The notes under the pieces: generated by a model
Told to the model about the DNA's origin: nothing
Seen by the model: the letters and a program-made list of their open reading frames with translations, nothing else
Database searches by the model: none
Made by a program: the position numbers and the translations under genes
In this document: positions 49,084 through 51,756 of the stretch, one piece after another
Numbering within the stretch: position 1 is the stretch's first letter
Layout of the letters: each line of letters opens with the position of its first letter
NCBI RefSeq assembly: GCF_044324785.1
Contig: NZ_CP172127.1
DNA length: 64,000 nucleotides
Strand: one strand, 5' to 3'
Origin: Escherichia coli
GTDB lineage: Bacteria; Pseudomonadota; Gammaproteobacteria; Enterobacterales; Enterobacteriaceae

Positions 49084-50138
49084 AGTATGTCTTCATCGAA
49101 AATCATCGGGCAGAGTTCAGCATCAAAGCGATGTGTCGTGTACTTCGGGTTGCCCGCAGCGGCTGGTATGTCTGGCTCAGGCGTCGTCACCAGATGAGCC
49201 TGCGCCAACAGTTTCGGCTCACCTGCGATGCCGCTGTCCATAAGGCATTCTTTGAGGCAAAGCAGCGATACGGTGCTCCCCGCCTTGCTGACGAACTGCC
49301 GGAGTTCAATATTAAAACCATTGCCGCCAGCCTGCGTCGTCAGGGGCTGCGGGCGAAAGCCAGCCGGAAGTTCAGCCCGGCCAGCTACCGTGCACATGGC
49401 CTGCCCGTATTGGAGAATCTGCTGGAGCAGGACTTCAGCGCCAGCGGCCCGAACCAGAAGTGGGTGGGTGACATCACGTACTGTGTGCCCGGAGTTCAGG
49501 GCGAGCATAGACGCTCAAATGAACCACGAGTCTGTCTGGAATATTGAACCGGTAACTCACGATGAGAAACCCAACAATCCCACCGGGTGTGACGGTGGAG
49601 AACCTGAGCGGCAGTGACCTGCGGCATGCCCGCAGGGTGATGTAACCCGCTGACAACGGGGATTGAGGCGAGATCACTAAGCCGAGATGATCCTCAAGGT
49701 TAAGTACTGAAAGGCTTAAGAATATGAACCCGTTAATCCGCCTCTGTGGGTTGAAAACGTCACCACGGCCTACGTGATCTGACAGGCCGTGCAGGAGGAA
49801 CTGGCAGTGATACGTAAGCACTGCCGGTCGAAGGTGTTTTGACATGTATGCGAAACTCCGGGGCAGCAGCGTCTATCACGCTCGCGTTGCTGACTTCTGC
49901 CAACTTGCGGCAAGCAAGGATAAAGAGTGCGACGGGCAGCCTCCTCAGTATGTCTGAGTCCAGTCAGGCAAACCGGGGAAGGTCAGCGACGGATGTTAAG
50001 GGGGCATGGCTCCGATGACGCGCTGGCTGGCGGAGCTTCCGTAGTAGTCCGCGATGGGGAAAGCCCATTACATGGCGAAGGGAAGCAGTTTGAATGTGTC
50101 TGCGACGTAAATTAACTGACCTAACGAGGTGAAGACCT

Positions 50139-51662
50139 TTGATAATCAGCGAAATGCAACGCAAGCTTGCCACATGGGCAGCCACCGATCCGTCCCTACG
50201 GATTCAACGGCTGCTGCGTCTGATAACACAACCAGAATGGCTGGCTGAAGCGGCGCGGATCACGCTTTCATCAAAGGGGGCGAATACCCCCGGTGTTGAT
50301 GGCGTGAACAAAACAATGCTACAGGCCAGACTGGCTGTTGAGCTGCAAATCCTCAGGGATGAATTACTCTCAGGCCACTACCAGCCCTTGCCCGCCAGGC
50401 GGGTTTACATCCCTAAAAGCAATGGCAAACTGCGACCACTGGGTATCCCCGCGTTGCGGGATCGTATTGTTCAGCGGGCCATGCTGATGGCGATGGAGCC
50501 GATATGGGAGAGTGATTTTCATACGCTCTCATATGGCTTCCGGCCTGAGCGCAGTGTCCACCACTCGATCCGCACGGTGAAATTACAGCTCACCGACTGC
50601 GGTGAAACCCGGGGACGCTGGGTGATTGAAGGCGACCTGTCCAGTTACTTCGACACCGTACATCATCGACTGCTGATGAAGGCTGTACGCCGCAGGATCA
50701 GTGACGCACGTTTCATGACTCTGCTGTGGAAAACCATCAAGGCGGGACATATCGATGTCGGTCTCTTTCGGGCGGCCAGTGAAGGTGTGCCACAGGGCGG
50801 TGTTATATCGCCGCTATTGTCGAACATCATGCTGAATGAGTTCGATCAATACCTGCATGAGCGCTACCTGAGCGGGAAAGCAAGAAAAGATCGGTGGTAC
50901 TGGAATAACAGTATCCAACGGGGCCGAAGTACGGCGGTCAGAGAAAACTGGCAGTGGAAACCCGCGGTGGCGTACTGCCGCTATGCCGATGATTTTGTCC
51001 TCATCGTCAAAGGCACCAAAGCACAGGCGGAAGCCATCAGGGAGGAGTGTCGGGGTGTGCTCGAAGGCAGTCTGAAACTCAGGCTGAACATGGATAAGAC
51101 TAAAATCACCCATGTTAATGACGGCTTTATCTTTCTGGGGCACAGGATCATTCGCAAACGCAGTCGTTATGGCGAGATGCAAGTGGTCTCAACGATCCCG
51201 CTGGAGAAAGCCAGAAACTTCGCCGCATCGCTGACAGCACTGTTATCAGGCAACTACAGTGAAAGCAAAGTCGATATGGCTGAACAACTCAACCGAAAAC
51301 TGAAAGGCTGGGCCATGTTCTATCAGTTCGTTGATTTTAAGGCCAAAGTCTTCAGTTATATCGACCGTGTCGTGTTCTAGAAGCTGGCTCACTGGCTGGC
51401 CCGCAAATACCGTACAAGTATCGCTTCCCTGATGAGGTGGTGGTGTAAATCACCGAAACCGGGTCAGAGCAAAACGTGGGTTTTATTTGGTAAAACCAAT
51501 CACGGCAAGCTCAGCGGCGAAATACTGTACCGGTTGGTGGGGCAAGGCAAGAAGCTGTTCCGCTGGCGGCTACCCGAAGGTAATCCCTATCTGAGGACGG
51601 AAACCAGAAAGACGTATACATCGCGCTTTACAGAAGTGGCAATGGCGTTCGCCAGCGTTTAA
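50139..51662 (+). pseudogene. group II intron reverse transcriptase/maturase with in-frame TAG
   Basis: RT motifs incl. YADDFV; amber codon at 51378-51380 with maturase-like sequence continuing in the same frame to 51662. Confidence 0.75.
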
Positions 51663-51667
51663 ATGGA

Positions 51668-51701
51668 GAGCCGGATGCGCTGAAAGGTGCATGTCCGGTT
51701 C
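51668..51701 (+). other. group II intron domain V
   Basis: GAGCCGGATGCGCTGAAAGGTGCATGTCCGGTTC matches the conserved domain V hairpin pattern. Confidence 0.65.
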
Positions 51702-51756
51702 GGGGAGGAGAGGCAGGGAAATAGTCCGACTACGCCCTGCCTCTTACTCTACTGCG

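Follow-up and report, generated by a model that had tools for sequence, protein, structure and literature searches.

E.c.I4 (IntA) is a group II intron of E. coli and Shigella. Its homing sites are the transposase genes of the elements IS629, IS911, ISEc16 and ISEc31, where it inserts at one specific position (Leclercq & Cordaux, 2012; PMC3522654). It is listed as class A in supplement table S2 of that study, and its ORF was likewise grouped with those of class A, a class without an endonuclease domain, by Toro & Martinez-Abarca (2013; PMC3552965), who quote a naming rule of more than 95% nucleotide identity for E.c.I4 copies. In the same work, the ORF of S.f.I1 of Shigella flexneri was 99% identical to that of E.c.I4 (PMC3552965). 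In strain SMS-3-5, a copy that is full-length but whose ORF is disrupted has been reported in a strain-specific island beside a 132-bp E.c.I4 fragment (PMC3522654). Splicing and mobility in vivo need both the intron RNA and the intron-encoded protein, which binds the RNA via its RT and X domains, and intron proteins can also work in trans on ORF-less bacterial introns (PMC4424553); a cis preference of the maturase is given in the title of Cui et al. (2004), which appears in the reference list of that review. In class D introns, a C-terminal extension past domain X aids maturase function and mobility (PMC3552965). The active-site metals are bound by a catalytic triplex to which the bulge of ribozyme domain V belongs (PMC6224600; PMC4496777). 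A search of the accessible literature returned no experimental study of E.c.I4.

The window analyzed here, a 64-kb stretch of Escherichia coli DNA, carries a group II intron inside an insertion sequence of the IS3 family. The features of this locus are as follows.

48722..52234, + strand: ISEc16 (IS3 family) carrying the intron; 3,513 bp, or 1,243 bp without the intron
48784..49083, + strand: ISEc16 orfA (99 aa), from the ORF list
49080..49482, + strand: ISEc16 orfB exon 1, ending one base past the Tyr codon of the W-x-G-D-I-T-Y motif
49483..51752, + strand: group II intron E.c.I4 (class A, without endonuclease domain), 2,270 bp; 5' GTGTG, 3' ...CTCTAC
50139..51665, + strand: intron-encoded RT/maturase (ltrA-like) pseudogene, from TTG 50139 or ATG 50154 (PGAP) to TAA 51663-51665
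51378..51380, + strand: in-frame amber TAG at codon 414, TGG to TAG by G-to-A at 51379, inside GIIM
51668..51701, + strand: ribozyme domain V (Rfam alignment), AGC triad present
51704..51752, + strand: domain VI (Rfam alignment), predicted fold with z = -5.9
51753..52204, + strand: ISEc16 orfB exon 2, an in-frame continuation to the stop codon that contains the DDE catalytic core
52235..52341, - strand: older E.c.I4-like scrap (intron positions ~16-118, ~91% identity), from self-BLAST and pairwise alignment

The intron-less sequence of the host element showed 98.9% identity to a copy annotated by RefSeq/PGAP as 'IS3-like element ISEc16 family transposase', and its ends carry imperfect terminal inverted repeats at 48722 and 52234 (TGATCTTACCCA.../TGATCCTACCCA...). 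IS3 proper was considered as the host and rejected, with only ~81% identity and a length of 1,258 bp against 1,243 bp. Judged by identity and length, the host is ISEc16, not IS3 itself. Reading the sequence directly, we noted an A-AAA-G slippery motif at ~49048-49052, with orfB in the -1 frame. The Rfam model of the ALIL frameshift pseudoknot (RF01497) matched the IS629-type host of E.c.I4 on plasmid pH105 with 116 bits (1175-1291 of that locus); in the ISEc16 of the window (49040-49160) it gave no match, and only the A-AAA-G motif is present. When the exons 49080-49482 and 51753-52204 are joined, an uninterrupted orfB of 284 aa results. Without splicing, the orfB frame ends at 49547, 22 codons inside the intron. 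No 3-bp target-site duplication was found at ISEc16, either here (flanks GAC on the left and CTC on the right) or in SMS-3-5, because the flanks have been rearranged.

The boundaries of the intron were set by aligning the window copy, two intact E. coli copies and the K-12 fragment, whose hosts are different IS3-family elements. Every compared copy reads ...TA(C/T)N / GTGTGCCCGG...CTTACTCTAC / T..., in which the slashes mark the boundaries. The ends agree with the 5' GUGYG and 3' AY consensus, with GTGTG at 49483-49487 and ...CTAC at 51749-51752, and are kept in copies from four hosts. The Rfam model for group II domains V/VI (RF00029) matched 51666-51752 on the + strand with 64 bits (E = 2.8e-10, gathering score 40). 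The Rfam models for domains I-IV showed no match to the intron even at E <= 1, so that only the domain V/VI models matched. Folding predicts a bulged branch-point A at 51746, with the 3' splice site 7 nt away.

A scan for EBS/IBS complementarity returned a candidate EBS1, UGUGGG at 49745-49750, and a candidate EBS2, UGAUGU at 49638-49643, both at chance level. In this chance-level scan, which is not statistically significant, the candidate EBS1 pairs 6/6 with the 5' exons of IS911/IS629-type elements but with the ISEc16 exon only 4/6, position -1 being mismatched, and the candidate EBS2 pairs 6/6 with ISEc16. If these candidate pairings were real, ISEc16 would be a sub-optimal site.

These data refine the initial annotation, which had described an IS3 of 3513 bp instead of 1258 bp with a group II intron at 49481-51752 inside orfB. 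The group II intron inside an IS3-family orfB is borne out by the RF00029 match and by the RT and GIIM domains of its protein. The Rfam alignment agrees with the proposed position of domain V at 51668-51701, and the exon join, giving an intact 284 aa, agrees with the proposal that orfB resumes in frame. The length of 3,513 bp and the intron end at 51752 were exact; however, the element is ISEc16, with 1,243 bp and not 1,258 bp remaining without the intron, and cross-host comparison moves the start 2 nt downstream, to 49483.

Classification of the intron, which had been proposed as a check, gave E.c.I4. The window intron differs by 2 nt from the published copy E.c.I4-25 of SMS-3-5 (coordinates from PMC3522654), and TAG is present in both. 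Its identity to intact copies is 97.2-98.2%, which places it under the naming rule for E.c.I4. The insertion point lies one base past the D-x-T-Y Tyr codon, at the position homologous to that in other hosts, and the intron has matches in over 3,000 E. coli records. By sequence, therefore, the window intron is E.c.I4 in its usual target.

The surrounding island is rich in insertion sequences (two IS21, IS5, IS630, IS256 and IS3-family fragments) and carries sitABCD-like genes, sodC and a TonB-dependent receptor. SMS-3-5 has the same island, with the same ISEc16, right flank, downstream sodC and flanking 5' intron scrap, at 99.7% identity over 6.4 kb. The left flank of ISEc16 in the window (48203-48721) is an ibrB-like gene that has lost its 5' end. 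Relative to SMS-3-5, the window is further deleted to the left of ISEc16, ~3 kb having been lost (ibrA, part of ibrB, and IS and intron scraps), and there is no nearby IS2. On the right, the E.c.I4-like scrap is cut off exactly at the end of ISEc16 and lies inside a degraded IS3-family orfB, a PGAP pseudogene. Its 5' junction is abnormal for homing, as the first ~15 intron nucleotides and the expected D-x-T-Y exon codons are missing or diverged. By its description in PMC3522654, E.c.I4-tr2 fits this scrap.

Two further observations were made in the window. A perfect 604-bp inverted repeat (22012-22615 on the + strand and 52301-52904 on the - strand, ~30 kb apart) contains the N-terminal part of a degraded IS3-family orfB and the first ~40 nt of an E.c.I4-like scrap, and its copies diverge beyond their shared end; the repeat could mediate inversion of the intervening segment. 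Strong Rfam matches were also obtained for two Hfq-binding sRNA families, isrN at 38057-38199 (- strand, 138 bits) and STnc490 at 56660-56781 (- strand, 129 bits). Both sRNAs were first described in Salmonella, whereas the present matches belong to an E. coli island.

The ORF of the intron is located in domain IV and encodes a protein with RT and maturase (X) domains. A Pfam run on this protein with the stop replaced by W gave RVT_1 at residues 91-337 (E = 4.9e-34) and GIIM at residues 361-431 (E = 1.2e-10); no HNH/En endonuclease domain was detected by Pfam. A single TAG interrupts the ORF in frame, and the 93 sense codons downstream keep the frame open and maturase-like. In the two intact copies inspected, position 51379 is G, giving TGG (Trp). 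The W414* protein has 413 aa, against about 507 aa at full length; it keeps the whole RT domain and lacks the end of domain X and a 93-aa C-terminal extension. In the PGAP annotation, the entry for the TAG copies is 'ltrA, group II intron reverse transcriptase/maturase, internal stop', a pseudogene. A Dcm hotspot was considered as the cause of the G-to-A change and dropped, the context being CTGGAA and not CCWGG.

The distribution of the allele was surveyed in E. coli records with a 61-bp probe centred on the TAG codon. The exact TAG allele was found in 45 complete records, all at the same island locus, and one mismatch was found in 2,343 records; 1,105 plasmid places with E.c.I4 probe matches were counted. 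The mutation is thus inherited with the island, and the exact left junction of the ISEc16 in the window is common to 22 complete genomes. Seven records at the same locus carry TGG together with the lineage marker at 51417. In strain 135, which has the same ISEc16::intron unit and flank, the intron is identical to that of the window except at 51379, and ltrA is annotated as intact. Because these seven genomes keep TGG at the same locus, TAG is a polymorphic nonsense mutation. In a comparison of orthologous loci that included strains 135, E41, B771 and SMS-3-5, two haplotypes, 50500C/50565T (as in the window) and 50500T/50565G (as in SMS-3-5), were each found with TAG and with TGG, and strain B771 is a clear conversion mosaic with canonical E.c.I4 at the locus. 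The presence of both codons on both haplotypes suggests either that dead copies could be patched through short-patch gene conversion, with other E.c.I4 copies as donors, or that the change is recurrent.

The lineage carries a further change in the ribozyme. At 51692, the second nucleotide of the two-nucleotide domain V bulge, the window has U where canonical E.c.I4 has C (AC to AU), and this U occurs in 55 records, that is, in all of the lineage, including those with an intact ORF. The Rfam score is 64.0 bits for the U version and 64.9 bits for the C version. Thermodynamic folding of the two versions gave similar energies with ambiguous bulge registers, a result that says nothing on activity. 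A search for daughter copies, in which the 3' markers of the lineage would be joined to IS911- or IS629-type exons, found none at these two site types, which would fit a lineage that has stayed at this locus. The bulge U may represent a second lesion, which we put forward as a possibility and not as a finding.

The TAG at 51378-51380, with maturase-like sequence in frame beyond it, had been noticed in the initial annotation, and the single in-frame stop, the 93 sense codons and the location inside GIIM confirm that description. Three interpretations had been offered with it: inactivation, sequencing error and read-through. Inactivation is supported by TGG in the intact copies, by the position within GIIM and by the RefSeq pseudogene annotation; of the other two, sequencing error is contradicted by the records, and nothing speaks for read-through. 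The window copy stands one base apart from ~2,340 other records, as a sequencing or assembly error with TGG as the true codon would produce. However, 45 complete records that were assembled independently, including SMS-3-5, have this very allele, with the internal stop annotated in several of them, and such an error can practically be excluded because these independent records carry the exact allele. Read-through or suppression of the amber codon, by which full-length maturase would still be made, perhaps as a regulatory switch, is very improbable. The 93 codons after TAG are indeed open and maturase-like, but an open downstream frame is expected after a recent mutation, and the intact ortholog differs by one base only. 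Within the 64-kb window no suppressor tRNA was found. Moreover, TAG is not conserved in the family: the inspected intact copies have TGG, and ~2,340 records lie one base from the TAG probe. Since TAG and TGG are each found on either flanking haplotype at the locus, the codon changed more than once or was exchanged; even so, we find it extremely doubtful that the amber is a conditional switch in which low read-through, or repeated TAG/TGG conversion, tunes splicing and hence ISEc16 transposition.

The stop codon would be of little effect if other E.c.I4 copies in the same cell provided maturase in trans and the intron was thereby spliced, so that the ISEc16 transposase was still made. Trans action is documented for ORF-less bacterial introns (PMC4424553), some carriers have intact copies, and strain EF5-18-41 has seven chromosomal places and a plasmid copy one mismatch from the TAG probe; the B771 mosaic also shows gene conversion between this locus and other copies. 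On the other hand, among the listed genomes that share the left junction of the window, most show a single chromosomal intron place, with further copies, plasmid included, in some. No other intron protein gene was found within the 64-kb window. A cis preference of the maturase, to go by the title of Cui et al. (2004; cited in PMC4424553), also argues against this reading, as may the domain V bulge change and the 14-15 other ribozyme substitutions of the lineage, and we consider it improbable. A further reading, rather unlikely, is that the copy had lost its mobility by the time the TAG arose, through ribozyme changes and notably the C-to-U at 51692, so that the nonsense mutation was a secondary hit in a dead element. 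The occurrence of the U throughout the lineage, intact-ORF records included, and the failure to find its 3' markers next to exons of the IS911 or IS629 type both favour it, and in RmInt1 a single C-to-U in or next to domain V or in DI abolishes retrohoming or splicing (PMC4496777). Nevertheless, the covariance-model penalty for the U is only 0.9 bit, which means that U is tolerated there across the family, and the absence of daughter copies covers two site types and is weak negative evidence.

We therefore favour, with a probability of about 85%, the reading that the locus is a nonsense-inactivated E.c.I4 retrohomed in ISEc16 orfB and inherited with the island, with both nested elements silenced unless maturase is supplied in trans. 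On this reading, E.c.I4 would have retrohomed into the conserved D-x-T-Y region of ISEc16 orfB, its normal target, and the ISEc16::E.c.I4 unit has since been inherited as part of the IS-rich genomic island. A G-to-A transition turned Trp414 (TGG) into an amber codon in most carriers, the window included, and the resulting cut inside the maturase (X/thumb) domain removes the class-specific C-terminal extension. Deprived of its own maturase, the intron would be expected to splice inefficiently in vivo and not to retrohome, and translation of ISEc16 would stop short of the DDE core, 22 codons inside the intron. Both nested elements would thus be silent unless an intact E.c.I4 elsewhere provided the protein. 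Loss of the maturase, and hence of splicing and of the ISEc16 transposase (full-length OrfAB), is likely because in vivo splicing depends on the RT domain as well as the X domain (PMC4424553). Sequence comparison thus establishes which intron this is, where it begins and ends, the mutation and its inheritance, whereas the loss of splicing and of transposase is inferred. The truncated 413-aa protein, with its whole RT domain, may retain residual RNA binding. Trans supply may also operate in some hosts, as many E. coli have intact E.c.I4, often on plasmids.

Both the intron and its target are known, this copy has been catalogued, and its nonsense mutation is already present in the literature and in RefSeq. 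The main value of the analysis is one of annotation: the locus is to be described as ISEc16::E.c.I4, with ltrA a pseudogene through W414*. In addition, the TAG copy of the window and the TGG copy of strain 135, otherwise identical, form a natural allelic pair that could be used to study the maturase dependence of E.c.I4 splicing and the effect of the bulge U.

Compared with canonical E.c.I4 in IS911/IS629-type elements (the EcPF16 chromosome and plasmid pH105), the window copy shares the boundaries, the insertion position and the RT and X architecture without an endonuclease domain, but differs at 34 nucleotides (1.5%), which include W414*, 7-8 other amino-acid changes and the domain V bulge C-to-U. 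The K-12 copy E.c.I4-tr1 (ykfC), located in IS911A of the CP4-6 prophage, has 97.9% identity to it over 1,789 bp and is likewise decaying inside an IS3-family element; however, the K-12 copy was inactivated by 3' truncation through insertion of IS5 and not by a point mutation. The RmInt1 intron of Sinorhizobium meliloti, found in ISRm2011-2, also lacks an endonuclease domain and homes into an insertion sequence, and its natural copies are undergoing inactivation by point mutation (PMC4496777). In contrast to E.c.I4, RmInt1 belongs to class D/IIB3 and resides in another IS family and another genus, and its documented inactivating mutations lie in the ribozyme and are not a nonsense codon. The locus fits the 'extinction' phase described for E.c.I4 by Leclercq & Cordaux (2012), and it is a textbook case of how nested selfish elements decay within a genomic island of E. 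coli.
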